The notes: a model not told the origin generated them from the sequence alone. A stretch of DNA of 64,000 nt from Hormiphora californensis (GCA_020137815.1 CM035360.1:7130001-7194000), one strand, 5' to 3'; shown: positions 30,833-59,765, counted from the first letter of the stretch. Numbers and translations are program-made.

Positions 30833-32789
30833 ATGATCCAGCCGTGTCCGGACTGGTCTGAGCAGTATACTAAAAACCCTTTATCAACTACCAGTTACCA
30901 CCCTGTTTCAGATAAGAATGGTGTTATGTACCCCTTCCATAACTACCACGGTGGAACATGGGCAGACAGGATGGACGAGATGGAACAGTTCAAGAGCAGG
31001 GACACTGATCTTTATATTTGCTGCACTATGCGATCAGGTACTGCAGTCGGACCCCCTATTTATCGGACCCCCCTATTTATCGGACCCCCTATTTATCGGA
31101 CCCTCTATTTATCGGGCAACCCAATCATCCCGGTAAATCGGGGCTCGACTGTACAACATATATACACTCCTGCTGCTAATCTGACCGGGTCTGTAACATC
31201 ACGTTTCATCTGGCAGGTTCCAATTGGAGCCAGAACATGATAAAGTTCATCCTTGGCATGGCGCCAGAGATAGCACCTTCTGATCTGGCCAAGTGGCTTG
31301 AGGGACACTCTAACGAACAGCTGGAGGAACTACCCTCCCCCAGGAGATTCAAAACACAGTAAGTAGGAGAGAAAATGACGTCATAATAAGTAGGAGAGAG
31401 TAGGAGAGAGAATGACGTAATAATGTGCAAAATTAAATAATGTTTCATTTCAGTGTCCCGTACTCGAAACTACCCCCTGACTGTAAAAGTATCTACATAG
31501 CCCGGAACCCTTTCGATAATGCTGTGGCGAACTTCGAAATAATCCGTGGTTATGTGACCTTTGGTGCTGAAGGTAAGGTTTTATTAGCATGATGATTAGG
31601 TGATGATTAGGTGATAGAGACTGGTGGGGTAGATAATTTAAGGAGTGGTTGGGAAATTGGGGGTATATTGAGGGGAGGGGAGGAAGGCACTAAACCCGGA
31701 GCGGGTGGGGTATGAAACATAATAACCGGTTTGCTTTATCATATTACCCTCTCTGGTTGGGCCTTCTTGTACAAGGAACTAAGATAAGGGGACATGGAGT
31801 GAACAGTGAACCGTGAGAGAGATAGAGAGCACGTGTCACGCGGGTGTACTTGTTGAGATAGAAGTGGGACTTCCATTCTAGACGTATATAACGTCACGGC
31901 TTGATGTATTATTTAAATGACGTCATACAATGCACCACACCCTTGGTTGACAGACATCTCTAACACATACTGTACGTTCCTTATATGACACATGTTCCTT
32001 TATTACAGATTTGACATGGGACAGATGGGTTGATCTGTATCTGGAGGGTCGGTGTTTGTATGGAAGCTGGTTTGAGCACGTGGCCCAAGGAGAGAGGAGA
32101 GCTGAGGAATACCCTGATACAACACTCCTTCTAAGGTATGTTCTAACCCTCCTTTACATTAGTGCGGTGAAACAGGGTCAAGCAAGGCATGTATTGTTAA
32201 TACTTTCTTTGTGTTGTGAGACATGGCACTGTGAGTGAGACACATGGCACTGTGAGTGAGACATGGCACGTGGTTGTGGGCATTGTTTAACCAGTAGTAC
32301 TAGTGGTGGAAGAAGAGTGAAGTGCAAACATAACAAACACACTTGCTAATTATAAGATCATTGTCACAACTGTATGCGACACAAACTGCACATGTGACAC
32401 ATTAGTTAAGCCCCTCGATGGAAATGTCACAAATCGGTTTATTTACCCTCTCACTCTAACCACCCCCCCCCCCCCCCAGATATGAGGATATGAAGGCTGA
32501 TGAGGCGGGGACTGTTCAGAAGATAGCCAACTTTCTGGGGCACCCTGTATCATCTGAAGATGCAATTAGGATTGCTGAACTGACCACCTTCAAAAAGATG
32601 AAGAAGGACCCTACTGCTAACCACCAGTGGAACGATTGGGGTGCAAACGAAGGATTCAAGTTCATTCGTAAGGGAATCGTGGGCGACTACAAGAACTATT
32701 TTACCAAGGAACAGTTTGAGAAATTTAAAGATAAGTTGAATAAAAGCGGGATCAAATGTTATAGCGCCAGCGAGTTTTCCTTAGAGTGA
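30833..32789 (+). CDS. Cytosolic sulfotransferase (SULT-like), about 5 coding exons
   Basis: RDTDLYICCTMRS|GSNW (PSB-loop position), YIARNPFDNAV, YGSWFEHV, RYEDMK, FIRKGIVGDYKNYFT. Confidence 0.88.
31045..31151. mobile_element. Tiny MITE with tatttatcggaccccc repeats in SULT intron 1
   Basis: cagtcggacccc...ggggctcgactg ends; 16-17 bp internal repeats. Confidence 0.55.
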
Positions 32790-35142: not shown

Positions 35143-35242
35143 NNNNNNNNNNNNNNNNNNNNNNNNNNNNNNNNNNNNNNNNNNNNNNNNNNNNNNNNNN
35201 NNNNNNNNNNNNNNNNNNNNNNNNNNNNNNNNNNNNNNNNNN
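35143..35242. other. Scaffold gap (100 N), preceded by low-quality sequence at about 34380-35142
   Basis: N run; garbled GC-rich and homopolymer-expanded sequence before it. Confidence 0.98.
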
Positions 35243-36695: not shown

Positions 36696-38427
36696 ATATC
36701 CTGATATCCTGGCCATCCCTGTCCTGAGCGTGCGTGTGGTGGAGGAACCGACCTTCCTCTTTGTGAGCCATGTTATGTGGAGAGTGTGGATCTGATTTAT
36801 ACCCAGCTGAATGATGTAAGTTGGTTGCAATGGTGAGACGCACCTCCAACCCTTGAGCCACCTTCGAGTGATTCGTGTCAGATGACAGGTCACCGATGTA
36901 ACTTCATGTTTCTTCGTGGGGATTGGGGGGCTGCTCTCCTAGTGCTGCAGCGATATCACTTGAGATTATAGTCCCCTGTTATGTGGGCTTGCCGTTGGCA
37001 AGCCCAGGCACTCGTAGTAGTAGTAGTATGGTGACGACACCGACTAACCCCCCTCCTATTTACAGAACACTGAGCTGATCATAGAGCTGACAGGACCCCA
37101 GAAGAGCTAGTTACAGTTGACCAGACCCCAAAAGTGCTTGGCTCTATGGATTTATATCCTTTACCGTGCTAACATCATCAGTCATGAGTTAGTGGGAATA
37201 TAACAGCCCTATATTAGGGTCAAAGGTCTACTTACCTGCCAATTTTTTGTACAATCCACTCTATTTTTATCTTTCTCTGATCACTATTTCAATCAATCTT
37301 TCCCTCTCCACAGTGGCAAGACAGCCGACTATAGCAACAGAAACAGGATTCCTCTGGATAAACTATGATCATGTGACAGCACCAGCACAGGCCATCCCCT
37401 CAAGGTACGTGGCTCCATCCAGATCTATTCACAACTGGTTTTATACACAAGTATATAAGTAATATTCTATTCCTTTCAGAGGGATGTTATCAAGTTCGCT
37501 TCGCTCTCTCCCATTTATAGCCGGAACATTCTAGTTGTGACTGATTCCAGTGCTGATCATCAGGACTCAGGTAAGAAAATATTAGGTGCCTTAGGTGCTG
37601 ATGATTTTATATCTGATAGATCTTATATTTGATTTTATATCTGATAGATACCACCACACACATCAACTAACCCTCACCCTCTCCTACAGGCAGCGAGATC
37701 CTCCAAATATGTGGCTCCTGTCCAGTGGAACATCATGCACGATATGTTCCTTGGTTCTTTTACCGAAACCGAGGAAAAGGACGGAGAGGCAATTCCCATT
37801 GAACCTGATCGAGAAGTACCTGCCACCATGATGCTCCGATGTTCCGTGCCAGGATTGGACAAATATTTGGACAGTACAGTCTTACTCTTTCAGTGTAATA
37901 GGAAAAATTTTATTTACCTCAACTGCCGAATAATTAACTGTTTTAATGTCTAATGTACAACTGAGATGAGATATCAACACCCGGCCCACCGCCCAGATAT
38001 CTCATATCAGAGTTTGGTATGGTGGAAAAACGTGAGTGTAGAACTTTTGGCGGTATAGCACGTGGGTAACAAGAGCGCGCGGACATTGTAATGATGAAAG
38101 CATGCGTTGTAAGCAGTGCGCACGCGCGCGCACTTGGCGTGGATCAGCCATGGGGTGGCTGATTCACGCCAATGTTTTTTTGTGAAACGTTGGCGGAGAT
38201 CAGCCATGGCTGGTGGCTGATTCACGCCAAAAAAGTTTGTGTGTGTTTTTTTTTCATTGAATTTTTTTTTCGTAATTTTTCTTTGATATTTTTTCATCGA
38301 GAAAAAAGTTGGCGTGAATCAGCCACCGTAGTCCCCTCGTTGCGGGGGTGCGCGCATGAGGGGGCTGCAGCGCATTCCAATTGCTTTTGTGAAAAATGGG
38401 AAAAAAATGAAAGTTTAAAGTCGAATA

Positions 38428-39397
38428 CGGTGGCAGATTCCGGCCAAGAGTTTTTTCAATCAAGTGAAATGTTTTTGTTTGAAATTTTATGAAAATTTTA
38501 TTTCAAAATGAAAATAAATATGTCGTTAAAATTATTGGCCGGAATCTGCCACGCGGGTGGCAGATTTCGGCCAAGATTCTCAAAAAACCTTGGCCAGAAT
38601 CTGCCACACACGTGGCAGATTCTGGCCAACCAACTAAAACTTGTTTATATCAAAGCGAAAACCACTGTACCCGACTAATTTTGATACGCTGAATCACGTA
38701 AGATACTTTTCCAATCCCTCAGAGGCCGGGAAAGTGTCATAATTGACCATAATTGGGTCTAATTGACCCCACTTACAACTTTTCACCTTAAAACGATAGA
38801 CGCTTATGTGAAGGCACTTTTCCGACTAATTTTGATACGCTGAATCACGTAAGCAATTTTTCCAAGTCCTCAGAGATCGTCAAAGTGCCCTAATTGAACA
38901 ATTAAGGCTAATTAGACCCAATTATACCCAATTAAGGCACTTTCCCGACCTCGGAGGACTTGGAAAAAATGCTTACGTGATTCAGCGTATCAAAATTAGT
39001 CGGAAAAGTGCCTTCACATAAGCGTCTATCGTTTTAAGGTAAAAAGTTGTAAGTGGGGTCAATTAGACCCAATTATGGTCAATTATGACACTTTCCCGAC
39101 CTCTGAGGGATTGGAAAAGTATCTTAAGTGATTCATCGTATCAAAATTAGTCGGGTACAGTGGTTTTCGCTTTGATATAAACACGTTTTAGTTGGTTGGC
39201 CAGAATCTGCCACGTGTGTGGCAGATTCTGGCCAAGGTTTTTTGAGAATCTTGGCCGGAATCTGCCACCCGCGTGGCAGATTCCGGCCAATAATTTTAAC
39301 GACATGTTTATTTTCATTTTGAAATAAAATTTTTATTAAACTTCAAACTAAAACATTTCACTTGATTGAAAAAACACTTGGCCGGAATCTGCCACCG
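38428..39397. mobile_element. About 970-bp near-perfect palindromic MITE/foldback with TA TSD
   Basis: TA|cggtggcagattccggccaag...cttggccggaatctgccaccg|TA; arms mirror to a centre near 38915. Confidence 0.88.
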
Positions 39398-39507
39398 TAA
39401 AAAAAAAATCATCCGCGCGCTTGGCAAACGTTGCTGGCTGGGATAAGGCAGCGCTTTTCAATCCGCGCGCGCACAAAATTTTCTGGGTGAACCGGACACC
39501 CTGGTCA

Positions 39508-42471: not shown

Positions 42472-43301
42472 AGTAGTGTAAAATTGGGGAGTTTAGTTCA
42501 TGGGGAGTTTAGTTCACGGAAAAAAAAATTTATTTTTATTTTTTTAATTTTTTCTGTATACAGAGAGGGGTTTTAGAAAAAAAATTTATATGGAAATTTT
42601 CATCATGAAATTTCTGACAAGATGGGAAAAAAATCAAAAAGAAATGAAACCTAATTTACAGGACATAATGATCAGGGGGGATCGTTTCCGCCCTCAACAC
42701 TCCCCCTTCCAGCTCGTGCCATAAGGGATCGCTTCCGACCTCAACACACGCCCTCAATCCAAGATTGATAACTCGTGCCATAGGGGAGAACATGTATACT
42801 GCTTCCGCTCTCAACACACGCCCTCAATCCAAGATTGATAACTCGTGCCATAAGGGAGAACATGTATACTGCTTCCGGTCTCAACACCCCTGTGGCAGAG
42901 AGAAAATATAATTCAAGATCCACTGCCACAAGGATCTCGAAAGTGGAAACCTATTTGAAAGCTCCAGGATACATGTATTGAAGACGGCATCTGCATCTAG
43001 TTCAGGCCATGCACCTGGAGTACACGGAATAATGCAGGGTGTATATCAGGAAGAGTCGAGAGCTTTCTAGTCATAACAACAGGCATCTCGAATACATTTG
43101 AAAGCTCTGGCGTTATGATGGCTCGAGAGGCGGCACCATATATCCCATGTGGATAACCTTCGGACAGAGGGGGATCTAGTAAGCCAGCTTCAAAGAAGAG
43201 AACGACGGGGAGAGAGAGGAGGCAAGTGAAACAAGTAACTTTAAAATGTATAAAAACAATGATTAATAAATTAAGGACATCTTCCACAGTCACACTCTAC
43301 T
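42472..43301 (+). repeat. Polinton left TIR (about 830 bp)
   Basis: Starts agtagtgtaaaattggggag; reverse complement of 59017-59765; internal about 70-bp tandem repeats at 42690-42890. Confidence 0.92.
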
Positions 43302-43307
43302 CATACA

Positions 43308-45171
<1,864 letters not shown>

Positions 45172-45223
45172 GTTACCTTAGACGGGGGTGCTAAACAACA
45201 AAAACGCATTGTTTAATGGCAAT

Positions 45224-45786
45224 CTAATAGCATACTACATCATTGGAATAAATAACCACACAATTGTGTCTGTTTTGATTTTGCCACCCACTAAGTTCAT
45301 ATTTTTGTCCAATTATCAGGCCTGGGGTTAGACGAGTAACAGCACAAAACGTTTCATCACTATCACGAAAGTACAGCTTCATGTAGGTCTCTTCGTTTTT
45401 AACTTTGATAAGCTCCCAAAATCCTAAACAAGGAAAGTTAAACAAATATACTAAGACCAGCACTGTACTAAACCTTTTATTTTTATTTTTGATGCATCAT
45501 GGTCTGTTGGACACTTATCAACAATGAAGCGATGGCATATAGGGCAAGATTGAAAGCTGGCTTTCCTAACTCTTTTCACTTTACGAAACCGACGGTCAGA
45601 ATACCCATCATGGAATTCAATATCTAGGTGATCACCAACAGCAACAGATAAATTCTTCAAGTGTGAAGGAAAGAGACGAACAGAGTAGGCTTCATGCCAA
45701 AATCCTGTTTCAGTTATCAAATCTAGGCGAACTCCTCCGAAAACGTCGGAAGATGGTTCCGAAAACAAAACACTAGCAAATACCAT
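45224..45786 (-). CDS. Polinton 2-exon gene, beta-rich with a CxxC motif (unknown function)
   Basis: Exons 45786-45474 and 45423-45224 joined by a 50-bp phase-1 intron giving KIKG|FWEL. Confidence 0.75.
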
Positions 45787-46257
45787 TTTTACAATTGTGT
45801 GAGGAATGAATAACTTATATAGGTATTCGATTTATAAAAAAGAAAAATATTTTTTTTCCCACAAAAAATCCTGAAACAGTAAAATAAATGGACCGATCAT
45901 AACTTGGAGATCACAGTTGCATGTAAGAAAACTATATATTTTTTACACGTGTATCCCATGTGGATAACCTTCGGACAGAGGGGGATCTAGTAAGACAACT
46001 TCAAAGAAGAGAACGACGGAGAGAGGAGGCATCTTGTTCATGCAAACGATACACCCCAGTACACGGAATAATGCGGGGTGTATATATCAGGAAGTTATAG
46101 GATCGAGGGATGTACGGTTTACAGATGCATGCAAGAAAATTACACATCTTTTTCACGCACTACACTATATATATATATGGCAGCTAATAGAACCTCAATA
46201 CTCGAAATCGCTTGCTATATTTGTTGCTTACCCTCAACTCAATCTTTTAACTCAACC

Positions 46258-49200
46258 ATGATCTCCTCTGCAATCCGATCCGGATCTCTAACCGCTGACG
46301 TCACCGGCAGACTCAATGCCCATAAAATCCCAACACGGTTTGCAGTAAAATGCCAAATCAAAGTGGATGACAAAACAAAGGACTTCCGATCAAGGCCCCG
46401 AGTGGTCTACTCCAAGGAAAGGATCCCTAACTTGGTTTCGGCATTGGGTGCGGAAATGTTTAACGCACAGTTCGATATGTTGGCTGCTCATGCAGTCGTT
46501 AATGGGCAGGGAGCGAGGATTATCAACCCCACCCTTCTACTGGAGGATGCTTCCCCCATTTCATTTAGACATCCGAAACAAGAGGATAAGGAGTCACTAA
46601 ATGGAGCAATGACAAAGACATACATACGTCCAGATGCCAGTTCCGATTATGAGGGTGTATTGCGTCAAAACACCCAACTAATTGTTGAAAATATGAGGAA
46701 CTTCCTCTCTGTCAATCTAGGGTTAAAGTTTTCCCTAACATTAACCTTGAGGATGAGACGAGCGGTTCAGATTGAAGAGGAAGCGACATTCTTCACCCAC
46801 ACCAAGACGAGGATCGTCTATCCCGCTGATGATCTCGAAGCGATCGTCAAAGAACACATAGACGAGTTACTAGAAAACATCGACAATTTGGAACGGGAGG
46901 GGTCCGGTTGGATCGTTAATGATATTGAAAAGATCGAAATCTCAAAAGCACGGTACGTAAAAAAACTCATTAGTTCATTCTTCAACTGTTCACCACAAGT
47001 TTCAATTCATAGAGACACACATCTATATGCTCACAGGTATACGCCGACGCTAAGAGGTTGCCATCAAGAATTGCCCGACTATTTGGCCAACAGAACCAAG
47101 TGTCTGCTCAACATTAAAAGCAAAGATCAAAAGTGTCTGTTATACTGTTTAATAGCTGGAACAATGAAAGATGATGAGCTACCAAATAGGAACATGCGGA
47201 AAAAGGCGAGTTCCTACGAATCACATGTGGCTGACTGGCAGATGGATGGAATAAACTTCCCCATAACCGATTTGAAGCAGGTATACTACTGGTAGAGACC
47301 TTAAGTTAGACAGGATTTTTTTAAATGTTTTTGAGCGATATCAAAACCAGTACCTTTCAGTTGGATAAAATTGAGAGTCAAAATGACATTGCCATCAGTG
47401 TATTTGGTACTGCCGAGGGTGGCATCTATCCGGTTAAACCATCAAAGAGTAAAAGCACAAGGATAGTAGATGTGTTACAGATTGGTGAGGGTGAGAAACA
47501 GCACTTTGTGCTCATCCGGAACCTTCTAACTCTCATAAAGCCCAAACACAAAGGCGGCAACTTTTTATGTCGCAACTGCTTTTATATGTAAGTGTTTCCT
47601 CACCACCTCTCTCTCTCTCTTTTTGCATTACACCCTCAATTCCTGTACTTATGATCCTCATTATTGCAGAACATCCACCAAAAAGGTATATGATGAGCAT
47701 ATAGAGCAGTGTTATAAAAATGCTCCTCAAGTCACTACAATGCCTTATGAGAAGTATTTGGAATTCAAAGGATTTCAAAAGATGGTTGAACACCCGTTTT
47801 ACATAGGTACGTACTGCGAATGGGATGGATTTTTGAGGGGAGGGATTTTATTTGACCCACCGTATTTTCAGCTGCTGATTTCGAATGCCTGTTGGAGCCA
47901 GAATGTGTACTTTGTGAAGGATGTTCCAAATGCACAGGGAACACTACAGACATTGCTTTACACACTCCATTTGCATATAGCCTCAAGGTTCATAGCATGT
48001 TTAATGAGCATGAACCTGAGGTGTATATCGGAGAAGATTGTGTAAAGAGATTTATAGCCCGGTTAAGGGAGCTTTATACTGAGTTTTACCCCACGCTGTC
48101 TACTGTTACGCCTATGGAACCCCTGACTGATGCGATTAGAGCTCGGTTGGATCCCAACATGTGTCATATTTGCACAAAGCCCATCACCGAAGACCGCCAT
48201 CTCGATCACTGTCATTATACTGGAAAAATCATTAATTATGCACATCCTACATGCAATCAAGCTCGCTCACGCCCAATGCACGTTCCTGTAATATTTCATA
48301 ACTTAACAAATTACGATGGTCACTTTTTAATACGACAGCTCGCCGAGGAGTTCGATAGTTGCACCATCATATCTAGAAGCATGGAAAAGTTCAATGGCGT
48401 CACCGTGGGTCCTAGTGGAACAAATCAAGGTCCGAAATTCAAATTCATTGATTCAGCACAGCACCTCAAGGGTAGTTTAGATGAACTGGCGAGGGATCTG
48501 AAGCATGATGACCTGAAATCTTTCCATTCATTCGTGGGGAAAAGATTCGGAAATGAGGCACTTGCACCGCTCCTGTACAGGAAAGGTGTATTTCCGTATT
48601 CGTTTATGTCCTCAATGGAAAAGCTCTATGAACCACTTCCCCCAAAGGAAGAGTTCTTCAATTCTCTGACTGGGGAGGGTGTCAGTGATGAAGACTATGC
48701 TCGAGCTGTGGAAGTGTGGGATAAGTTCAATTGCATTTGCATGAAGGACTATGTCGAGATCTACGCTCTCACAGATGTAGCACTGCTGGAGAAAGTCTTT
48801 GACGTTCATCGAGAAGTATCGCTTAAGGGTTACGGTCTTGATCCTCTGCATTACTTTAGTTCTGCATCATTGACCTGGGATGCGGGACTGAAATTTACCA
48901 AGGTTAAGTTGGAGAACATCCGTGATCGTGACATGTACGACTTTATCGAAAGGGCAAAGAGAGGGGGAGTCTGCACTATTGTTAAAAGATTGAGTACGGC
49001 TGGTGATAGGACTCTCCACTACTTTGATTGTAACAACCTTTATGGGAAAGTAATGATGGAGCCGCTCCCAATATCGAACTTCAAATGGGCACATTGGACG
49101 TTAGATCAAGCACTATGTGAGATCAACGGGTGGAATCGTCTTGGTCCTGATGCTGCGTTTATTGAAGGGGACTTTGAATTTCCTGAGGACCTCCACGATA

Positions 49201-50279
49201 AGCTCAGCGACTTTCCGCCTCTACCAGAGAAAATGTTAGTTCCTGAAGCATCACCGCACACAACAAAACTTAGGGAAGAGTTGAATGTGAAAAAGGGAAA
49301 TATAGAAAAGCTGTTACCCCATCTTGGAAAACATTCTCAGTATGTGGTGCATATTAGCGCTGCTAAAAAGGCACTCGAGTTAGGAGTCAGGTTGGTGAAT
49401 GTTGGAAAGGTTGTGACATTCCGGCAGGAAGCATGGCTTAAACCATACATTGAATTCAATACACAGCAACGCCAGAGCACAACCAGCAAGCCTAAAGTGC
49501 GGTTCTTCAAAAATATGAACAACTCATTCTATGGCAAGACCATGGAAAATGTTAAGATCCGCCGGAACATTGTTATTGCCAAGAACCCAACGGCGGCACA
49601 GTTCCAGGTGAGGAAATTACAGTACAAGGGATTTCAGATTCTTGGGGAAAATCTGGCGTTGATAGAGAATTTCCAGAGCAAAGTATGCCTCGATCGTCCA
49701 ATTTATCTGGGCGTTACTATTTTGGACACCAGTAAAGTGTTAATGCAAACTTTCTGGTATGATTGCTTGAGGGAGAGGTATCCAGATGCACAGCTGTGCT
49801 TTACAGACACTGACAGCTTCCTGTTCGACGTGCCAGCCAACTTTGATGCGGGGATGCTTTCAGGCTGGATGGACTTTTCCAACTATCCACCCACTCACCC
49901 ACTTCATGATCCATCCAAATCAAAAGTCCCAGGTTATTTCAAGGACGAAACAGCTGGGGCTCCGATTAAACAGTTTGTTGGGCTAAGATCGAAGCTTTAT
50001 TCCATCGAGATGGGTGATGGTAGTGTGAAAAAGTCGACAGCTGGGGTGAAACGTGCTGTGGCTGATAGAGAGATTGAGCATGACAACTTCTATCAAATAG
50101 TTACGGGTAGAAAGAGAATAAAGACAGTACATCAACATACTATACAATCACGAGCACACATTGTCCATGAGAGGCGTCAGCTGAAACGAGCTCTGTGTGC
50201 CATTGACGATAAACGGTGGGTGCTTCCCGATGGGATCCTAACGTATCCTCATGGTCACAAGAGAGCTCGGACTCACTGA
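46258..50279 (+). CDS. Protein-primed family B DNA polymerase (pPolB), 5 exons, about 1236 aa
   Basis: Exons 46258-46952, 47037-47280, 47361-47587, 47670-47806, 47872-50279; EGSGW, ADFE, DHCH..G..AH..CN, FHNLTNYDGH, RKGVFPY, DCNNLY, KNMNNSFYGK, TDTDS, DDKR. Confidence 0.95.
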
Positions 50280-50329
50280 AATGTTACTGTGGTAACTCTA
50301 CGTGTGCGGAGCACACGTACAACTGAAAT

Positions 50330-50933
50330 TCAGGCGGGGCCGCCCGCAGTACTTACGTAACGTGCGAGTACTAAGACTTTCCCTGCCTCTCCTGTGATCC
50401 ATCCGTAAAGCACGACTCTGGTCCCGACTTTAAGCTTCATTGATGCGTTTGACTTTTCAATCCTGCAATTACCCCTGGAAAATACCACAACGTTTTCGCC
50501 GATTCGCTTGGTTGTTTTCTCTACTGTCCATTCACCTGAAAGATTAGTTTCAGTGTCGGGAAAAATAATAATTTAGTGGCATTACCTTTAATTTGCATTG
50601 CACTGCTCGGTTTACAGTTGCATTTAACATCTGGTAGATTAAATTTTCCACACTGGCTACACTCATTGAGAGGCATCGGTACAATCCTGGTGGCAACCAG
50701 CTCTTCCTTTGGAAACTCGCCCCGTCTATATGCCTGAAATAGAAAATAAATTAGCCTGTGACAATTTGAGACGATATACGTACCTCAACCATACATGTTG
50801 AACCTCGAGCAACCACAGCACAAGAGAGCATCTCATGGTCAAAGGAGAGTATAGTCATTTTGTAGCCCTCTTCTACCCGTAACTTGATGTTATGTTCACT
50901 ACTGAACAGCTGACCATAAAAAATTTCGATCAT
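50330..50933 (-). CDS. Polinton 3-exon gene with CxxC..CxC, probable paralog of 45224-45786
   Basis: Exons 50933-50784, 50733-50586, 50535-50330 splice in frame: ...CSQCGKFNLPDVKCNC...QIKG|EWTV...VLYGW. Confidence 0.72.
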
Positions 50934-50986
50934 GCTTATAGAGAGAGAGAGATTAGTTGCGGGTTATAAAATATTAAAAGACAATT

Positions 50987-51507
50987 TTAAAGTGTATTTA
51001 AGTTAATTAATTCTTTCACAACAATAGCACTCTTTGACAAACTACAGTATCTTGCTTTGTGTCTATTGTGACATAGTAGGGGGAACTCATTTCCAATATT
51101 CACTATACCCGAAATGTCCCTCACATTCTGACAATATTTTTCAATAAACCGTTTGGCTGACGAGCCGTGTGTCAGCACCTCATCGGCGTGATGTCGCTTA
51201 ACCAGATCAATAGCAACAGATAAGGGGATTGAACCACGGAGAGGCTCCGTAAGACCAATGCCACCAAGAACATGACGAGTGTACCAGTTAGTTTTCCTAT
51301 CGTTTGCTGTTAGTTCTAAATCTAAGGGATGGTTCAGTGGTCAAGAGGGATCACAGGGGGGGGGGGGGGTGAAAGCTTACCTATCGGTGGTGAAATGCAA
51401 AATGCCCGCGTATGGATGTTACCATACTCTCGATAGGTAATAACCATCTCCCGAGGGTAAAACCCGCTAGAGAGGTTGACCCCATCCATGACAATCAAGG
51501 TTTTCAT
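50987..51507 (-). CDS. Polinton 2-exon gene, possibly DEDD-exonuclease-like fold
   Basis: Exons 51507-51381 and 51321-50987 (59-bp intron): IVMDG..FYPRE..F.ISPP..L..TNWY..G..C..H..C; resembles a common Maverick accessory ORF as I recall it. Confidence 0.68.
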
Positions 51508-51582
51508 TACGCTAAACTCTAACATTTGGGTTAGAAAAAAGAATTAACATCTACACAAGACTGCAGCAAATATATCACCTAG

Positions 51583-51978
51583 TCAATTTGCAGTTCTCTT
51601 CTTTTTACGCTTAATACAACAATACGAGTCATTATCTTCAGTTATAAAGCGACCATAGTAAACACTATCGGCTGTAGCTGTTAACAAAAACTGTCGGGCG
51701 ATTGAAATAGAATCTGCCTTATCTTGTTCAGCGTTTTCACTGCTTGGCAAATTATCTTTGAGCTCATCATACATAATAGACAGTTGACGGAGGACAATCG
51801 AGCGAACCTCGTTAAATCGCACAGCTAGTTTATCATGCAATGACAGTTGCTGACACTGATGCAATAGGGCACTGTTGAAAGCTTTCTTATGACCGGGACA
51901 GTCCCGACGGGAAACCTTGACAGCTTCATCAACGACACGATTGGCAACATATGCAATCCAAAGATCAGAGCAGTACAT
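51583..51978 (-). CDS. Polinton hypothetical protein with basic C-terminal NLS-like tail
   Basis: 131-aa ATG ORF, CPGH..LH.C motif, KRKKKR, TATA-like run upstream. Confidence 0.7.
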   Translation of the reverse strand: MYCSDLWIAYVANRVVDEAVKVSRRDCPGHKKAFNSALLHQCQQLSLHDKLAVRFNEVRSIVLRQLSIMYDELKDNLPSSENAEQDKADSISIARQFLLTATADSVYYGRFITEDNDSYCCIKRKKKRTAN

Positions 51979-52038
51979 GATTATGAAAGTCTGTTAGCAG
52001 TCTGGTATATATATACACTAGTTCAAGGCGAAAAAAAA

Positions 52039-52791
52039 TTAATTTTTTTTCTCTTGGACTTGCTGTAAATATTTTATACTGTCACTAATAATTGTCAAGA
52101 TATGAGAAAATGCTGCTTTATTTTTTGAAATTTCTTTTTTGACCAGCGATAAGTTTGTAGCTTTTTCAACATTTTTTATAAGTTTTTTATCTTCTTCTGT
52201 CAGCATGATGCGCTGGGGTACTGCTATAGGAATCACGCCATACAATAACCCGGTAACTAACTTTTGGAATGATTTTAGCAACTTGCGACTTGCAAAAATT
52301 TTGGAAACATTTCCCTTTGATAAGTGGGACTTTAGTATCCAAAAGTCGTGAATTGAGGCGCTGTTAATTATGGAATCAGAGAACTCATTATAATTTCTAT
52401 CGTCCAAGCGTTCTTGGTATTCTTCCACTTGCTTATTCAGCAAGTCAATTTTACTCAGTTCCTCTGTATGCTTATCCTTTTCATTTTTCAACAGTTTTTT
52501 TAGTTTTTGCACCTTTTCTTGCTCCGTAGATAATTCAAGTTTTAACTTAACAATTTCCGTCTCTCGCGGGATTGTTTTCACCTTCTCAGTGAACAGATTA
52601 TCTTTTAACTGCTGAACTTCGTCAGGTTTTTTATTGGATGTCTTGGTTCTCTTGGTTACATCACGTTCGACAGTATCGGGAGCTTTTCTCTTGCCAGATG
52701 ATCGTAGCAGTATGGTTCTGTGTTCTGCTTTTTTGTGTTGAAGCAGCTCCGTGTAATCCGGGAAAGTTTTTTCGCAAATGTAGCACTCCAT
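52039..52791 (-). CDS. Polinton C2H2 zinc finger plus coiled-coil protein
   Basis: CYICEKTF..LLQHKKAEH, GKRK NLS-like motif, heptad-rich middle. Confidence 0.8.
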   Translation of the reverse strand: MECYICEKTFPDYTELLQHKKAEHRTILLRSSGKRKAPDTVERDVTKRTKTSNKKPDEVQQLKDNLFTEKVKTIPRETEIVKLKLELSTEQEKVQKLKKLLKNEKDKHTEELSKIDLLNKQVEEYQERLDDRNYNEFSDSIINSASIHDFWILKSHLSKGNVSKIFASRKLLKSFQKLVTGLLYGVIPIAVPQRIMLTEEDKKLIKNVEKATNLSLVKKEISKNKAAFSHILTIISDSIKYLQQVQEKKN

Positions 52792-52848
52792 TTTTGTCGA
52801 TCCTAGCCGCCCGTGCTATTTATACTCTGAGCATGCAGCCCCATTACC

Positions 52849-53895
52849 ATGGATAAGTTATATGAAGACAGCAAGTTTGCCGGAGCATTTTCTGGCAAAG
52901 ATGCATTCCGTCGAGCTCTCACAACGGTTCAGCCCAAAAAAGAGATTGATAAAAAGTTTACCGCGATAGATTCATATACCCTTCACAAGCCCGTTAGAAA
53001 GCCCAAAAAATGGCGGCGAATTTTTACCAAGGGGATAGGATATTTGTATCAGATGGACTTGGTTGATATGCAAGCCTATTCCCGTCAAAACAAGGGGTGG
53101 AAATGGATTATAACTGTCATTGACACATTTAGCAAAAAGTTATGGTGTTTCAAACTGAAAAATAAGACGGCAGACAGTGTATACAAGGCTTTGAAACCAT
53201 TTTTAGAGAAAAACAGACCCCAAAAAATAGAAACTGACGCCGGAGGTGAATTCATAAACAAAAAATTTAAAAATCTTTTCGAAAAGTTGAAAATTGATAG
53301 ATACACAATTTCTTCCGACCGGAAGTGCGCCATTGTAGAGCGCGTTAACCGAACATTAAAATCGAGGATGTTTCGGTCATTTACCGCTCGAGGGAAGCAT
53401 CAGTGGTATGACATACTTGATGATCTTGTTTCCGGTTATAATGAAACATATCATAGAAGTATCAAGATGAAACCAAATGAAGTAACAAACAAAAATGAAT
53501 CTGTGGTAAGGAGCACCCTATTTCCGCCAGTTAAGCCCGCAAAACCGCCCAAGTTTCGTATTGGAGACACTGTCCGAATATCACGTCTTAAAGGAACATT
53601 TCAAAAGGGATATGAGCAGACCTTCTCTGCTGAAGTTTTTGTGATTGATCGTATTAAACCTACCAACCCAGTAACATATGGTATAAAAGACTATGGGGGT
53701 GATAATATAAAAGGATCATTCTATACCGAAGAACTCCAGTTAGTAGACAAGTCAGGGAACACGTGGTTAGTAGAAAAGGTGATAAGGACTAGAAAACGCG
53801 CGGGTAAAACGGAATATTTTGTAAAGTGGTACGGTTATAATAACGATTGGAATTCCTGGGTTGATAGTGCTCCGCTTTTGCACAATGCCGGTTAA
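52849..53895 (+). CDS. Retroviral-like (rve) integrase with C-terminal chromodomain
   Basis: QMDLVDM, IDTFSK, TDAGGEF, VERVNRTLK (DDE); YFVKWYGY..NSWV. Confidence 0.95.
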   Translation: MDKLYEDSKFAGAFSGKDAFRRALTTVQPKKEIDKKFTAIDSYTLHKPVRKPKKWRRIFTKGIGYLYQMDLVDMQAYSRQNKGWKWIITVIDTFSKKLWCFKLKNKTADSVYKALKPFLEKNRPQKIETDAGGEFINKKFKNLFEKLKIDRYTISSDRKCAIVERVNRTLKSRMFRSFTARGKHQWYDILDDLVSGYNETYHRSIKMKPNEVTNKNESVVRSTLFPPVKPAKPPKFRIGDTVRISRLKGTFQKGYEQTFSAEVFVIDRIKPTNPVTYGIKDYGGDNIKGSFYTEELQLVDKSGNTWLVEKVIRTRKRAGKTEYFVKWYGYNNDWNSWVDSAPLLHNAG

Positions 53896-54484
53896 ATTCC
53901 TGGCTAATCATAACTGTATAATATTCGGGCAAACTGGGGCAGGGAAAACACAGTTTATCCTTCGCGTGATTAGGGAGAGGCTTGTTGAACCGTTTCCGGA
54001 TAATGTTTACTACATGTACTCTGTTTGGCAGGATTTCATGTCACAATGCCCCCAGATTACATTTATCGAGGGTCTTAATTTTTCTAAATTAGACACTACA
54101 GAGCCCAGTCTTTTAGTTATAGATGACTTAGTGCTGGATGTGGATAAACAAGTTGCAGCTTCATTTATCATGGGCTCGCACCATCGTAAAATTAGCTTGT
54201 TTTTTATTACACAAAATCTATTTCCAAACTGTAATATTTTTCGTCTCATGTCTGCAAATTGTCATTATTATGTGTTATTTCAAAATCAGCGAAATTTTCG
54301 ACAAATTTCTACACTAGCTAGGCAGATATATGTTGGTAGAGATGTCCAACGAATTTTAGAAGCATATAAGCGTGCTAGTGAGACAGAGAGAGGCTTTGTG
54401 GTCTTATCATTTTCACCACTTTTACCTAACGAGTTGACTGTGATAACAGATTATTTTTACCCATGGATAAGCGTTTATCTGTAG
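53885..54484 (+). CDS. A32/FtsK-like genome packaging ATPase
   Basis: GQTGAGKT Walker A, LVIDD Walker B, SHH..ITQN; ATG at 53885. Confidence 0.92.
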   Translation: MPVKFLANHNCIIFGQTGAGKTQFILRVIRERLVEPFPDNVYYMYSVWQDFMSQCPQITFIEGLNFSKLDTTEPSLLVIDDLVLDVDKQVAASFIMGSHHRKISLFFITQNLFPNCNIFRLMSANCHYYVLFQNQRNFRQISTLARQIYVGRDVQRILEAYKRASETERGFVVLSFSPLLPNELTVITDYFYPWISVYL

Positions 54485-54714
54485 ATCGACACCGCTACAT
54501 ATTACACAAGTTTTCAACAGTAGGACCTGCTAAGCGGAAAGCAATGTTGCGATCAGCACCACCTGTATTTTTCAAAATCTTGAAACAGGTCGCACAACTG
54601 GCTATTTTAAGGAAAATAGAGATTCCTACGGCTCATAAAATTTTAAGTAGCAAGGCTATAAAAAGGTATGCAGCATCTAAGCAAGTCGTTACTTTGCTCA
54701 AAAAGGTATTATGA
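54463..54714 (+). CDS. Small basic Polinton protein
   Basis: 83-aa K/R-rich ATG ORF overlapping both neighbours. Confidence 0.6.
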   Translation: MDKRLSVDRHRYILHKFSTVGPAKRKAMLRSAPPVFFKILKQVAQLAILRKIEIPTAHKILSSKAIKRYAASKQVVTLLKKVL

Positions 54715-54995
54715 GCAGATTTGTCTTACTTCCGGTGAGTGGTGGTGAGAAAAAAGAGATTAATCTGCCAGAAAACCTGTACACACCCCCGTATATTGAT
54801 GAAGAACTTCTTGGGGCTATTTTTAAAGCCGATATAATCAACTTAAAGGGAAAGTTATGCTGTGATGGACTTCAATTAGACATTGATTTTGATGCATTTG
54901 TTAGAGACTGTCAGAGGGGTAAATTTATGAAGAAATATGAACCTATTTATGAAAAGTTACATTTAGTAGGGTACAACTTTGACAACTTGATTTAG
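54711..54995 (+). CDS. Small Polinton hypothetical protein
   Basis: 94-aa ORF with ATGA stop/start overlap. Confidence 0.6.
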   Translation: MSRFVLLPVSGGEKKEINLPENLYTPPYIDEELLGAIFKADIINLKGKLCCDGLQLDIDFDAFVRDCQRGKFMKKYEPIYEKLHLVGYNFDNLI

Positions 54996-55423
54996 AAAAC
55001 TGAATTAGTAATTTGTAAAACAGAATAGTATTCGTAATCTTTCAAAAAATCAGACACACTCAGTCCCAGACTCATAACAAGCAGAAAATGCATGCAATGC
55101 TGTCCACAAAGGACACTCTCAGGATTTTGAACTGCAACGTTGGCAAATTCATAAGACTTAAATGTTCCTAGAAATGTCCTATAGTCCTCCGGGAGAGTTT
55201 TATCATAAGGTGACCTACCAAAGGAGTCAAAAAATATAACATGGTTGTGTCGAACGAACCAGGCACACCAGTGTTTTCCTGGTTGCGTGTGACAGTCGGT
55301 GTTAGTTACAAAGGAATATATCCGTCTTTTGGATGGTCTCTGACATGCTGGGAATACACCAGTAAAATACTTTCTTGTGAAGGTATTATTAGATAGAGCA
55401 TGGTCTAATTCAATATTGTTCAT
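54992..55423 (-). CDS. Adenain-like cysteine protease
   Basis: NTD..PGKHW, FFDSFG, Q....CGQHC catalytic motifs. Confidence 0.93.
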   Translation of the reverse strand: MNNIELDHALSNNTFTRKYFTGVFPACQRPSKRRIYSFVTNTDCHTQPGKHWCAWFVRHNHVIFFDSFGRSPYDKTLPEDYRTFLGTFKSYEFANVAVQNPESVLCGQHCMHFLLVMSLGLSVSDFLKDYEYYSVLQITNSVF

Positions 55424-56844
55424 TCAACAATTTCAATTGAACGATCTCCGCTTATTTTGATCAAACGATCGTAAATGGCGTAGATTATGAGAACAAGATC
55501 CTCAGTATTAGCATGGAGATCGATTTCTAAGTTAGTTGATGCAAATCGCTGTGGGCTTAAGTACCCATGTACAGTCTCCCCATTTTGCTCTGGTTGCATG
55601 CAGATCCCAACCATAAAATTCTGATTAAAGTTACTCGAGTCTATGAGACATGCTCCGCGATCTTTCTTTCCAATACTCGAATAAAGCTGACTCAGAAAAG
55701 TTCCATCTTTATCATACACTAATTTGCCGTGACTTAGATACGGTACGGTGGATAGGGGAGTGGGGAAATAGGGTTTTCCATCAAGGTGTAATTGAAACCT
55801 AGTAAATGGAACAAATGCAAATGGATTGCCGCTAAAAGTTCCATCAAAATGTTTGCTGTACTGCAAACAGAAGAATGCATGATGAGGGATCCTATTGTTC
55901 AAAAATAAATTGTTCAGACGTATGAACTTCTCCTGTCCTACGGGCTTAACAATCAACTCGGGTTTTGTTACATAGTAAGGAGCAGCCTCCTTAGCTAATC
56001 GTTCTTCGAGCAGGTTCAAAAATACTTGGGATGGTCGGATATACGTAGCCGAGAGATATACTGATTTAACATCAAGGCTATAATCTTCTGCAGTGTTTGC
56101 CATTATGAGAAACTTATCAAGATTCTTTGTGAGGGTAAGCCGTATGTTCATATTGGGAGGGAGAGCTTTATGAGAATTAAAGAGGGGACAGTGAAGCTTT
56201 GTTCTTACTACGCGACCATCTAGCACAGCCCTCCTTCTTCGGATGCCTGCCCTATTCGAAATGTATCGAGCGATCTTTGCTTTCTGTTTTGTTTCTCCCT
56301 CACCGGTTGCTCCTTGATCAACATACGTCTCGATGTCATCATAATTATAATCGTAACTTTCATCTATTCCAGCGAGTGATGTATCATCTGCATCTTCTTT
56401 TGTAATGCCGGTATCCATGATAAACATTTGGTCTTTTCTCAAGATATCTAATCTATTCGGGTCCACGTTGAGCATAGTGTCAAAGTAGCTCGTATATGCG
56501 TAGCTGTTTCGCATGCTCTGCATAATGTCAACTCTATCGGAAATTTTGATATTTACTAATCCCCAGATCGCATTGGCTGTGTTATTAATTAGTGTAACCT
56601 GATCGGTGATGGGTACGGCTGCACCAGCCTTTTTCAAATTCAGCTCAGTTATAATATCAATATTTCTCAACATGCCCTGCTGCTGGGGTGCAAGGACAAA
56701 CGACACTGGAGCATCTTTTGAAACAGACTCTCTAGGGTAGACTTTTAGTTCATAAGTATCGTCTATTGAAACATTAGTTGAGGGTTTTTGCCAAAGAAGT
56801 AGTTCAGTAGAAACAGCCTCGGTAGTACCAGAGTAAACCTTCAT
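55420..56844 (-). CDS. Major capsid protein (double jelly-roll, inferred)
   Basis: 474-aa beta-rich ORF next to the protease; LINN..AIW, YAY.SY, LH.PLF...LPP..IRL.L, NPF.F motifs typical of Polinton MCP. Confidence 0.85.
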   Translation of the reverse strand: MKVYSGTTEAVSTELLLWQKPSTNVSIDDTYELKVYPRESVSKDAPVSFVLAPQQQGMLRNIDIITELNLKKAGAAVPITDQVTLINNTANAIWGLVNIKISDRVDIMQSMRNSYAYTSYFDTMLNVDPNRLDILRKDQMFIMDTGITKEDADDTSLAGIDESYDYNYDDIETYVDQGATGEGETKQKAKIARYISNRAGIRRRRAVLDGRVVRTKLHCPLFNSHKALPPNMNIRLTLTKNLDKFLIMANTAEDYSLDVKSVYLSATYIRPSQVFLNLLEERLAKEAAPYYVTKPELIVKPVGQEKFIRLNNLFLNNRIPHHAFFCLQYSKHFDGTFSGNPFAFVPFTRFQLHLDGKPYFPTPLSTVPYLSHGKLVYDKDGTFLSQLYSSIGKKDRGACLIDSSNFNQNFMVGICMQPEQNGETVHGYLSPQRFASTNLEIDLHANTEDLVLIIYAIYDRLIKISGDRSIEIVE

Positions 56845-57119
56845 ATTCTAGGACGGTACGGCGTAAGTCGCTTCTTCTTGAATCGTTTTTTTGACGCACG
56901 GTTAATGTGAGATACAGCCTTGGAACTCAACCCTTTTATAGCTTCCGCGGCTAGAGGAGCTACGATTGGCAGCGCTCCTCGCAGAAGTGATGCAAAAAAG
57001 GAGCCAACCCCCTCGCCGTTTTGATCATAAATGTAATACCCTTCTTTGTCCAACCCTCCCCCATGCTGCATCATCATTTGACGGTAGCGAGACACTTGAG
57101 AAAACGATAGATCTTCCAT
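56841..57119 (-). CDS. Small core/pVII-like protein with QxGxG motifs and basic tail
   Basis: QHGGG, QNGEG, GSFFASLLR..LP, KKRFKKKR. Confidence 0.7.
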   Translation of the reverse strand: MEDLSFSQVSRYRQMMMQHGGGLDKEGYYIYDQNGEGVGSFFASLLRGALPIVAPLAAEAIKGLSSKAVSHINRASKKRFKKKRLTPYRPRI

Positions 57120-57150
57120 TTTTTGAAATAATGTTGCATTACATCCCTAT

Positions 57151-57834
57151 TTATAGATCTCGGACATGCAAATTAACCATAGAATCAAATTTTGAAGAAA
57201 ACGGTAAGAGCTCTCCCTTGATATTTCTCAAGACTATTTCAACTTTTGAAAACTCGTTAACTTCAATTGGTATATATGATGGAGTGCTAAACTCATAAAA
57301 AACATAACCTTGATCGTGATGGGTTACAGGCACTACAGCTAAAATTCTAGATCTTTTTCCATTAATATAACTGCCAACAACAATGTTACAATATACAAAA
57401 CATAATTCAGTGTTTATCTGATCATATTGTCTTGATTTTGTAATAGTTTCATTTTCTATCAACCATGTTCGCTCATCATCTTGGGAGGTTTTTAAAAATG
57501 ATGGAAGTGAAATAATGCTAAGTGACTTGCTGCAGATAAAACGGATCATACTGTCTATTTCATGCACTAAAACAACATCTTCGTCAACAGTAGAGTTTAT
57601 CTGATTTGCAATAGTTACCGCAACATCATAGCTGGTCCCATACCTCTTTGATTCTATCGGTAAACAATAGTTCTCAGATTTGTACTGAAATCTGGTGTAG
57701 AACGATGACAAATCACCATATGCAATTGATTTTAGTGCGATGACAGGCTGCTTCATTTCCACCGGATCGAGAGTCGTTTTCAAAATGGCCGGGTTCGCAT
57801 TTCTTCCTCCAATTATTAAAATATTTGACGCCAT
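57151..57834 (-). CDS. Minor capsid (penton-like) protein, inferred
   Basis: 227-aa beta-rich ORF; FVYCNIV..S.ING..ILAVVP..Y.P..F..VEI.L....GE C-terminal pattern. Confidence 0.8.
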   Translation of the reverse strand: MASNILIIGGRNANPAILKTTLDPVEMKQPVIALKSIAYGDLSSFYTRFQYKSENYCLPIESKRYGTSYDVAVTIANQINSTVDEDVVLVHEIDSMIRFICSKSLSIISLPSFLKTSQDDERTWLIENETITKSRQYDQINTELCFVYCNIVVGSYINGKRSRILAVVPVTHHDQGYVFYEFSTPSYIPIEVNEFSKVEIVLRNIKGELLPFSSKFDSMVNLHVRDL

Positions 57835-58025
57835 TTTCTAGTTATCAGATTAACGGTTGCCTTTTATAATAGGACGGGGATCGAGGAGGTGTTTTTTACA
57901 TCTGATAATATAGTACACTGACTGCAAAGGAACCGGGGCTTTGTATCACCTCGAGAGAAGTAGTTGAACAAATTAACACAAGACATTTCTAAACGGTAGT
58001 TTCTCTGTTAATTCGGTTATATACA

Positions 58026-58493
58026 TCAAAGATTTTGTAAAAAATCAGATTTGTTCATCTTAAGACCAATAATAAAACTGATTATTACGGCAAATACTGG
58101 GAGAGACATCAGAGCATACAGAGAGCCGTTATTCTTCTTCTTCTTAGTAGTCTGTACTTCTGTAGTCACTCCACCAGCAAATTGTGAAATAGGACATAGA
58201 AAGTTCAGCTTGTTCAAGTTTAGAGAAACAGAACCCTCTCCTTTAACAAAGATCATCTTATCTCCATCGATCAGTAATTCAGGCCACTGGAATGTAGAGA
58301 AGTTTTGGGCATCTATCATGTACACATTCCAATTGGTGCTGTTGTTCATCTGTAGGACATTAACGCTGGAACCGTTTTTAGAAAGGACAACATTTCCCTC
58401 GCCGGTTAGACTAAGCAGATGAGGACAGTTGGTGTGTTCAAATGTGACAAGAAACGAACTAGCAATAGCAAATGAAATGATCTGACCAAACAT
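58026..58493 (-). CDS. Polinton small type-I membrane protein (unknown)
   Basis: Hydrophobic N-terminus, N-x-S/T sequons, TM segment LYALMSLPVFAVIISFIIGL, short tail; ATG at 58493. Confidence 0.6.
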   Translation of the reverse strand: MFGQIISFAIASSFLVTFEHTNCPHLLSLTGEGNVVLSKNGSSVNVLQMNNSTNWNVYMIDAQNFSTFQWPELLIDGDKMIFVKGEGSVSLNLNKLNFLCPISQFAGGVTTEVQTTKKKKNNGSLYALMSLPVFAVIISFIIGLKMNKSDFLQNL

Positions 58494-58645
58494 GTTTCTC
58501 AAGTTCTCTCACACTCCAGCATATATACACTACTTTTAGGAAGAAGAAAAAATTATTTTACGAAAATTATTTATTTTCAGCATTTACCACTATTTATAGG
58601 AATAACTCTCACTCCAACTCCCGCTCTAACTTGCTTTGTTTCGAT

Positions 58646-59047
58646 ATGGTTGATCAGCAGCACTTTCCAAATCTCGATGAATCTGATCCCGATGAGGACA
58701 TCTGGGACTTTCCAATCAAGGATCAACGACATATACCACGGCTATTGAGACGAGTTGCGAACAAATACGTCTATCTGGACAGGCCCCTTACCTTCAAAAT
58801 CGGATACTTCTTCTGGGATCAAGATGGTATTGGTCGGCACACGTACGATAAATGGTTCAGTATTGCTGACCTTGATACTCCCCTACCATCACGAATCGCT
58901 ACAAGCACAGGGCATACAATTGTCCAAATAAGTGACATTAGCATAAAGGTGGACACGAGGCCCGACTACTCTCTGCCCGTATATGGATTGGACTACAGAG
59001 TGGATGATCCGGGATTAGTAGAGTGTGACTGTGGAAGATGTCCTTAA
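58646..59047 (+). CDS. Polinton hypothetical protein ending inside the right TIR
   Basis: ATG ORF of 133 aa with acidic N-terminus and C-terminal CDCGRC. Confidence 0.55.
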   Translation: MVDQQHFPNLDESDPDEDIWDFPIKDQRHIPRLLRRVANKYVYLDRPLTFKIGYFFWDQDGIGRHTYDKWFSIADLDTPLPSRIATSTGHTIVQISDISIKVDTRPDYSLPVYGLDYRVDDPGLVECDCGRCP

Positions 59048-59765
59048 TTAATTCATTATTTTTATACATTTTAAAGTTACTTGTTCACTTGCCTCCTCTC
59101 TCTCCCGTCGTTCTCTTCTTTGAAGCGGCTACTAGATCCCCTCTGTCACGAGGTTATCCACATGGGATATATGGTGCCGCCTCTCGAGCCATCATAACGC
59201 CAGAGCTTTCAAATGTATTCGAGATGCTGTGTTATGACTAGAAAGCTCTCGACTCTTCCTGATATACACCCTGCATTATTCCGTGTACTCAGGTATGGCC
59301 TGAACTAGATGCAGATGCCGTCTTCATACATGTATCTGAGCTTTCAAATAGGTTTCCACTTTCGAGATCCTTGTGGCAGTGGATCTTGAATTATATTTCT
59401 CTCTGCCACAGGGGTGTGAGACCGGAAGCAGTATACATGTTCTCCCTTATGGCACGAGATCAATCGGATTGAGGGCGTGTGTGTTGAGAGCGGAAGCAGT
59501 ATACATGTTCTCCCCTATGGCACGAGTTATCCATCTTGGATTGAGGGCGTGTGTTGAGGTCGGAAGCGATCCCTTATGGCACGAGCTGGAAGGGGGAGTG
59601 TTGAGGGCGGAAACGATCCCCCCTGATCATTGTCCTGTAAATTAGGTTTCATTTTTGACCATCAGATAGAAAAACCAGAAACAAAAACCCCGCTGACAGA
59701 AAAAAAAAAATGAAAAAAGCCGGGAACGAAACGCCCCGAACAAAGACTCCCCAGGAAACACTACT
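59017..59765 (-). repeat. Polinton right TIR (outer about 120 bp degraded)
   Basis: Reverse complement of the left TIR with scattered 1-nt deletions; ends actcccca...acactact. Confidence 0.88.

Follow-up and report, generated by a model that had tools for sequence, protein, structure and literature searches.

A Maverick/Polinton of Hormiphora californensis whose DNA polymerase gene is very likely divided by four spliceosomal introns

Is the DNA polymerase gene of a virus-like element in the ctenophore Hormiphora californensis divided by true spliceosomal introns, or is it a decaying copy broken by insertions? The gene lies at positions 46258 to 50279 of a 64,000-nt stretch of genomic DNA (GCA_020137815.1 CM035360.1:7130001-7194000; hereafter the window, in whose coordinates all positions are given) and encodes the protein-primed family B DNA polymerase (pPolB) of a Maverick/Polinton. 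Four GT-AG introns had been proposed for it in a preliminary description, and all four were confirmed in the sequence with the coordinates and lengths given there; on the sequence features set out below, they are very likely true spliceosomal introns. The gene was divided as follows.

46258..46952, plus strand: exon 1, 231 amino acids (aa), N-terminal region and terminal-protein (TP) domain of little-finger/PAD (LF/PAD) fold, the fold being taken from the corresponding region of a homologue
46953..47036, plus strand: intron 1, 84 nt, phase 2, GTACGT..CACAG, at the end of the TP domain, in frame (28 codons) and without a stop
47037..47280, plus strand: exon 2, linker and first half of the vOTU domain, carrying the predicted catalytic Cys (kept in 33 of 33 homologues)
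47281..47360, plus strand: intron 2, 80 nt, phase 0, GTATAC..TTCAG, within the vOTU
47361..47587, plus strand: exon 3, second half of the vOTU with the predicted catalytic His, and the CxxC of a C2HC zinc finger
47588..47669, plus strand: intron 3, 82 nt, phase 2, GTAAGT..TGCAG, within the zinc finger
47670..47806, plus strand: exon 4, zinc-finger HxxxC and the lead-in to Exo I
47807..47871, plus strand: intron 4, 65 nt, phase 1, GTACGT..TTCAG, directly 5' of the Exo I DFE motif
47872..50279, plus strand: exon 5, 801 whole codons and the stop, exonuclease (carrying an HNH-like insertion) and polymerase core

Translated exon by exon, the five exons amount to 3711 nt (1236 aa and a stop) with no internal stops, and the product aligns with the 33 homologues described below, which bears out the proposed joined frame of about 1236 aa with family motifs running over the junctions. 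Introns 2 to 4 shift the frame, and the raw open reading frame (ORF) at 46072-47295 reads through intron 1. All four introns start with GTA and end with CAG, with 60-70% pyrimidines ahead of the acceptor. The last one falls at about residue 435 of 1236; as had been described, the introns are thus restricted to the N-terminal part of the protein (its first 35%), and the exonuclease and polymerase core is unbroken. Exon 5 was matched by PF03175 (E 6e-20) and by PF02945 (E 5e-4, under its cut-off), and contains the motifs DFE, YFDCNNLY, KNMNNSFYGK and TDTDS. The expectation that ORF-based pipelines would call the gene decayed was overstated: the last ORF, of 807 codons, matches DNA_pol_B_2 (E 6e-20), and such a pipeline would find a pPolB lacking its TP and vOTU domains, not miss the pPolB.

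The splice junctions were evaluated against homologous proteins. A search with exon 5 returned 538 proteins among 7995 candidates, 120 of which were listed (best identity among those listed: 40%); the 96 of these 120 with at least 1150 aa were dereplicated at 70% identity to give 33 homologues, from which a profile was built. Joined exons, with an X placed at each junction, matched this profile as one domain (positions 81-1220 of 1222, 1088 bits), and the match fell into two when intron 1 was kept. Within a 17-residue window, 31, 31 and 33 of the 33 homologues have the same 17 residues' length over junctions 1, 3 and 4, respectively; at junction 2 the H. californensis protein has one residue that all 33 lack. 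With intron 1 retained, 46 residues stand against 19-20 in homologues, and the roughly 27 extra residues were found in none of them, which is the outcome of the alignment of the spliced protein to Polinton pPolBs that the preliminary description had called for. Within 45 nt of sites 1 to 4 there are 8, 6, 2 and 3 GT-AG pairs that keep the frame and introduce no stop, and by profile score the pair listed above ranked first each time. A rough estimate of the probability that GTA and CAG would arise by chance at four insertions defined by homology is 1e-12 to 3e-10 (with 5-20 slides allowed at each), or 7e-8 to 2e-5 if GT and AG only are considered.

Because some of the named homologues are gene models and may themselves have been spliced, related DNA loci were also checked. 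We collected at least 111 such loci (some redundant, the metagenome portion being a minimum count), 73 of which span all four junction positions. As many as 65 of these 73 do so as one unbroken match, in agreement with the claim that a single-ORF pPolB is the norm and with published work (PMC8097293; this and all other publications are cited here from excerpts of their text). Among the other eight, one locus (L097) has an intron, and the rest have stops, frameshifts or protein insertions. The L097 intron (3076-3159 of that locus) is an 84-nt GT-AG segment with stops; it interrupts the zinc finger of pPolB at a point four codons upstream of the intron 3 site, on a viral contig whose polymerase clusters with those of insect elements. 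GT-AG ends were found nowhere else in 10 candidate gaps and 13 further insertions of the related loci. A FastTree phylogeny of 107 polymerase cores placed L097 with the insect elements and the H. californensis protein with P0001 and P0003 among single-ORF homologues (the latter position being approximate, given an end branch of 1.03), and its well-supported branches force two changes. The simplest reading of these sequences is that the L097 and H. californensis introns represent separate gains.

Closer relatives were sought with the N-terminal ORF, which returned three proteins among 1770 candidates at 64-70% identity; two of them (P0241 and P0243) share the pPolB start MISxAIRS. P0242 stops at EISKAR, while P0241 continues as EISKARYV, its YV being what the GTACGT donor would encode here, and then departs from the sequence, its end lying 9 residues further on; P0243 is shorter than both. 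The ends of P0241 and P0242 point to the same intron 1 site in these relatives, with a read-through sequence that is not conserved. Scans of viral contigs with exon 5 alone and with the close N-terminal relatives returned no locus.

To place the introns relative to protein domains, we used a structural model of the corresponding part of L002, a single-ORF relative, rather than of the H. californensis protein (pLDDT, the predicted score in the local distance difference test, 90.5). Model residues 5-126 resemble the LF/PAD domain found in Y-family polymerases (Z 8.5; root-mean-square deviation, rmsd, 3.2; 106 aligned; Foldseek E about 1e-3), and residues 137-255 resemble OTU proteases (Z 7.5-7.8; the match at Z 7.6 has rmsd 3.8 and 105 aligned); these Z values are middling, yet both folds match those published for the Polinton TP and vOTU. 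In Polinton pPolBs the two folds occur in the order TP-vOTU-Exo-palm, and the vOTU has been proposed to free the TP (10.1101/2024.03.18.585575). Residue 125 of the L002 model corresponds to the beginning of exon 2, which puts intron 1 at the TP domain's end. Residues kept in 33 of 33 homologues span all five exons: S216 is on exon 1, vOTU C265 and H362 are on exons 2 and 3, zinc-finger C384/C387 and H400/C404 on exons 3 and 4, and Exo I D438/E440 on exon 5. Since the vOTU Cys and His and the zinc-finger ligands are split over exons, an intact TP-vOTU-polymerase would need at least introns 2 to 4 to be removed. ESM Atlas gave no match to exon 1, and exons 1-4 drew no useful match from Pfam or PHROGs. 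The hallmark polymerase of Mavericks/Polintons, a protein-primed family B enzyme of TP-vOTU-Exo-palm order, was thus recognized through PF03175, the profile, the kept Cys and His residues and the folds on the L002 model.

The gene belongs to a full-length Maverick/Polinton of 17.3 kb that runs from AGTAGT at 42472 to ACTACT at 59765; ends of the AGTAGT type are the terminal inverted repeat (TIR) end motif of Mavericks/Polintons. Besides pPolB, its main features are the following.

42472..43300: left TIR, beginning with AGTAGT
59018..59765: right TIR, ending with ACTACT
52849..53895, plus strand: rve integrase with chromodomain, one ORF (PF00665, E 3e-14; PF00385, E 4e-7; 50 related loci match)
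53885..54484, plus strand: packaging ATPase, one ORF (weak PF02456/PF04665; tblastn matches in 10 of 111 pPolB loci, best E 1e-34)
54992..55423, minus strand: adenain/Ulp1-like maturation protease, one ORF (weak PF02902/PF00770, E about 0.01; tblastn matches in 16 of 111 loci, best E 5e-15)
55420..56844, minus strand: double-jelly-roll major capsid protein, 474 aa, one ORF (model pLDDT 89.5)
57151..57834, minus strand: candidate minor capsid protein, one ORF (weak, identity from position; 2 related loci, best E 5e-5)

Further hallmarks of the group, namely an rve integrase, a double-jelly-roll capsid protein, an ATPase with an adenain-like protease and long TIRs, were found, and the integrase, ATPase, protease and major capsid protein are each encoded by a single ORF. 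Foldseek matched the capsid model to the capsids of iridovirus, PBCV-1, Sputnik and mavirus (best E 1e-15). The TIRs are 95% alike over 661 nt and share AGTAGTGT at both ends, and the outer ~170 nt of the right TIR are loosely alike; reads show many indels against the right TIR, which suggests an assembly error there. A 74-nt piece of the TIR (43141-43214) recurs at 45952-46025 (96%), directly upstream of the pPolB start and between the divergent pPolB and accessory gene A (below), where it is possibly a promoter or origin element. A C2H2 zinc-finger, coiled-coil gene (52039-52791, minus strand) stands head to head with the integrase, and an ORF at 58026-58508 (minus strand) has hydrophobic ends resembling those of a membrane protein, with DNA contigs showing a small indel near its end.

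Four accessory genes flanking pPolB are also predicted to be interrupted.

45224..45786, minus strand: accessory gene A, one predicted 50-nt intron (45473-45424)
43300..45171, minus strand: accessory gene B, six predicted phase-0 introns (70-198 nt)
50987..51525, minus strand: accessory gene C, one predicted 59-nt intron (51380-51322)
50521..50933, minus strand: accessory gene D, one predicted 50-nt intron (50783-50734)

These nine predicted GT-AG introns (50-198 nt), with frames open across them, are less firm than those of pPolB. In gene B, three exons begin with MWDD, as in exon duplication, one intron has a long CA repeat, a late exon weakly matches HeH/LEM (E 0.02), and the 3' part is unclear; homologues of genes A, C and D were not found among the related pPolB loci, Pfam or PHROGs. 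As predicted from sequence, introns appear confined to replication and accessory genes, the integrase and capsid-module genes being free of them. Donor-motif density (3.3/kb in the left arm, 1.0 in the right arm, 2.2 outside) was set aside as evidence, the motifs having been picked after the introns were seen.

Elsewhere in the window, a single-ORF SLC22-like transporter gene (17064-18698, minus strand) has its best named matches in Bolinopsis microptera (39-47%; other named animals at most 29%), which by itself points to a likely ctenophore host. A non-LTR (long terminal repeat) retroelement ORF of 1001 codons (27778-30783, plus strand) encodes an endonuclease and a reverse transcriptase. Long inverted repeats at 38426-39399, at 6076-7082 and at 31915-32087 paired with 62333-62505 are likely miniature inverted-repeat transposable elements or fold-back elements, and a run of 100 N at 35143-35242 marks an assembly gap.

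DNA and RNA reads were drawn from nine listed runs. Two DNA runs, which may include the source of the H. californensis stretch itself, were aligned to 44700-59400. Among 40 of the 160 variant rows, 29 fall in exons 1-2, of which 25 are synonymous and 23 at third positions; decay is unlikely because two relatives break off at or just past the intron 1 position and because 25 of these 29 exon variants are synonymous. DNA-run contigs (X2 records 2-3) contain introns 2-4 with one difference each and possibly come from the source of the stretch. One DNA contig aligns on either side of intron 4 and not over its interior (47815-47862; joint 47814-47863), the pattern that a sister copy whose intron has diverged would give. 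Another (X4 record 10) has the beginning of exon 2 joined back to where the gene begins (46219-46366, 46944-47121) and represents a rearranged, more diverged copy.

From the exon homology, the four segments, the element genes and the TIRs observed, we infer transcription and splicing: host RNA polymerase II would transcribe pPolB in the nucleus, and the major spliceosome would take out the four short introns to yield the predicted 1236-aa TP-vOTU-zinc finger-exonuclease-polymerase. The vOTU may then release the TP, as proposed for Polinton pPolBs (10.1101/2024.03.18.585575). The introns would have been gained in this lineage from an intron-free ancestor, intron 1, at least, before the split of P0241 and P0242. 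They would persist because the element replicates from DNA to DNA, Polinton replication having no RNA intermediate and hence no reverse-transcription step that would eliminate them. The most probable reading is that they are tolerated and constitutively spliced and do not act as a switch. We consider it highly probable that this is a host-transcribed, spliceosome-processed gene whose product works as an ordinary Polinton pPolB and whose introns were gained in the lineage.

Several observations weigh against this account. Intron 1 is in frame and stop-free, and a branch-point motif was seen in intron 4 (TTGAC at -20) with none clear in introns 1-3. P0241 and P0242 come from contigs of about 1 kb, so their ends may be contig edges, and P0251, from the cluster of P0242, departs a few residues before the EISKAR end. 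P0001, the nearest single-ORF relative (38-40%), lies on contigs of 4.5-4.8 kb that are possibly transcripts, which weakens the inference of intron gain. No clean 6-bp target-site duplication was found (left TCTCTC, in a microsatellite flank; right CCTCGT, at an end from which reads differ by many indels), so current mobility is no more than a possibility. Coverage in the RNA runs was negligible, and no spliced pPolB transcript was seen in them: a metatranscriptome run with a small share of the region gave two 151-nt pieces at depth 3 that cover 46879-47154 with intron 1 unspliced, and a second, guessed run gave one unlike 48-nt piece. These pieces neither show nor refute splicing, and they may stem from DNA carry-over or pre-mRNA. 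The proposal that the element depends on host splicing accordingly stands as far as the introns, which are very likely, and stops short of splicing itself, which was not seen.

The introns might also be genuine and have arisen once the element had integrated, within a copy that was silent or domesticated, the family no longer replicating; this overlaps with our account on splicing, and we regard it as unlikely. The lack of a clean target-site duplication, the poorly matched outer TIR and the lack of any expression seen would fit it, as would the introners (intron-generating transposons) of dinoflagellate Polinton-like proviruses, which were mostly gained after integration (10.1101/2025.03.18.643946). 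Yet the intron 1 position is shared with relatives about 30-35% diverged, copies show a synonymous bias, the capsid module is intact, and the right-TIR indels suggest an assembly error.

A further scheme, which we offer as a long shot, is an active, capsid-encoding ctenophore Maverick lineage with a two-part genome, comprising an intron-rich replication/accessory arm and an intron-free integrase/virion arm, in which the oldest intron would sit at the TP/vOTU boundary and its regulated retention would release free TP, possibly as an intermediate to the separate preterminal protein and polymerase of adenoviruses. Its regulatory element taken alone, with intron 1 sometimes retained to give free TP or non-productive RNA and so set the ratio of TP to polymerase, appears improbable. 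Intron 1 does lie at the TP/vOTU boundary (exon 2 from L002 residue 125, between the LF/PAD-like residues 5-126 and the OTU residues 137-255), the P0242 and P0241 read-throughs end 0 and 9 residues past EISKAR, the sole RNA pieces keep intron 1, and TP is a separate gene in adenoviruses and in a coral polinton (10.1101/2024.03.18.585575). Against this, intron 1 has no stop here, so retention would not end the protein at the TP; the two depth-3 metatranscriptome pieces may be DNA or pre-mRNA; and introns 2-4 cut inside domains, one intron of four at a boundary being weak evidence.

Recent introner insertion is very improbable as the origin of the four introns. Introners do colonise dinoflagellate Polinton-like elements (10.1101/2025.03.18.643946), and short repeats flank some introns here (intron 1 has G|GTA at either end, and AG precedes introns 2 and 4), but the four introns are mutually unlike and have no copy within the window save a CT microsatellite and chance words. 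Random, merely intron-like insertions in a decaying copy deserve almost no credence: relatives commonly include decayed copies that bear stops and frameshifts (e.g. L022, L038 and L108), but here GTA and CAG ends fall exactly at homology-defined points in four of four insertions, the exons have no stops, and independent-looking DNA-run contigs carry introns 2-4 with one difference each (possibly from the source of the stretch).

In its length of 17.3 kb, TIR ends (AGTAGT), pPolB, rve integrase with chromodomain, ATPase, protease, double-jelly-roll capsid and TP-vOTU-Exo-palm order, the element is like other animal Mavericks/Polintons, with the PolB (PF03175 and an N-terminal OTU) of the alpha type of adintoviruses (PMC8502044). 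Intact vertebrate Mavericks are reported to be intronless (PMC8097293), in contrast to the four pPolB introns and about nine predicted accessory-gene introns here; endogenous mavirus-like elements (EMALEs) have no introns (PMC8547959), and endogenous viruses have been assumed intron-free and annotated with a prokaryotic gene caller on that ground (PMC10120064). Introners occur in dinoflagellate proviruses, full-length Polinton-type elements with spliceosomal-type introns, which differ in being protist elements with repeated introner families mostly acquired after integration, whereas the four short introns here are unrelated, in an animal element, with one site common to diverged relatives (10.1101/2025.03.18.643946). 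Punuivirus, an endogenous giant virus of Chlamydomonas, likewise has introns massed in latency genes and a separate virion-production module (10.64898/2026.10.09.758095), but it is a giant nucleocytovirus with RNA support, and the split between intron-bearing and intron-free genes here is drawn from sequence. Introns are abundant in mirusviruses and present in pandoraviruses and some chloroviruses (PMC12768974). Mirusviruses and adenovirus, whose E2 region (E2B) encodes preterminal protein and polymerase, are nuclear DNA viruses with genes that need the host spliceosome (PMC7851563, PMC12768974). In adenovirus, TP and polymerase are separate, and its splicing is contrasted with that of cellular genes, whose introns break coding sequence (PMC7851563); unlike there, short host-like introns here cut conserved domains of one fused polymerase.

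Term searches of the available text found no mention of spliceosomal introns or ctenophores in PMC8502044 or of spliceosomal introns in 10.1101/2023.08.22.554363, and nothing relevant in that of PMC11296320, PMC12220804, 10.64898/2026.07.28.741278, PMC3151243 and PMC5803895. Among the papers listed by the literature searches, no title or abstract opening reported spliceosomal introns in an animal Maverick pPolB, although an earlier multi-exon annotation may exist (in Repbase, subscription journals or supplements). Introns in dinoflagellate Polinton-like proviruses and in nuclear DNA viruses were already known; what is well supported here is that a complete element deviates from the view of Mavericks as intron-free, with one intron site common to diverged relatives.

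An intact element with at least four, and likely about thirteen, introns implies that intron-bearing lineages can be misscored as degraded or truncated. The unrelated intron positions in separate lineages, that of the H. californensis element and that of L097, would offer a usable system for the study of intron gain. The nuclear, spliceosome-dependent expression implied by these introns bears on the question of whether Mavericks in animals live as autonomous viruses of the nucleus or parasitise giant viruses of the cytoplasm.

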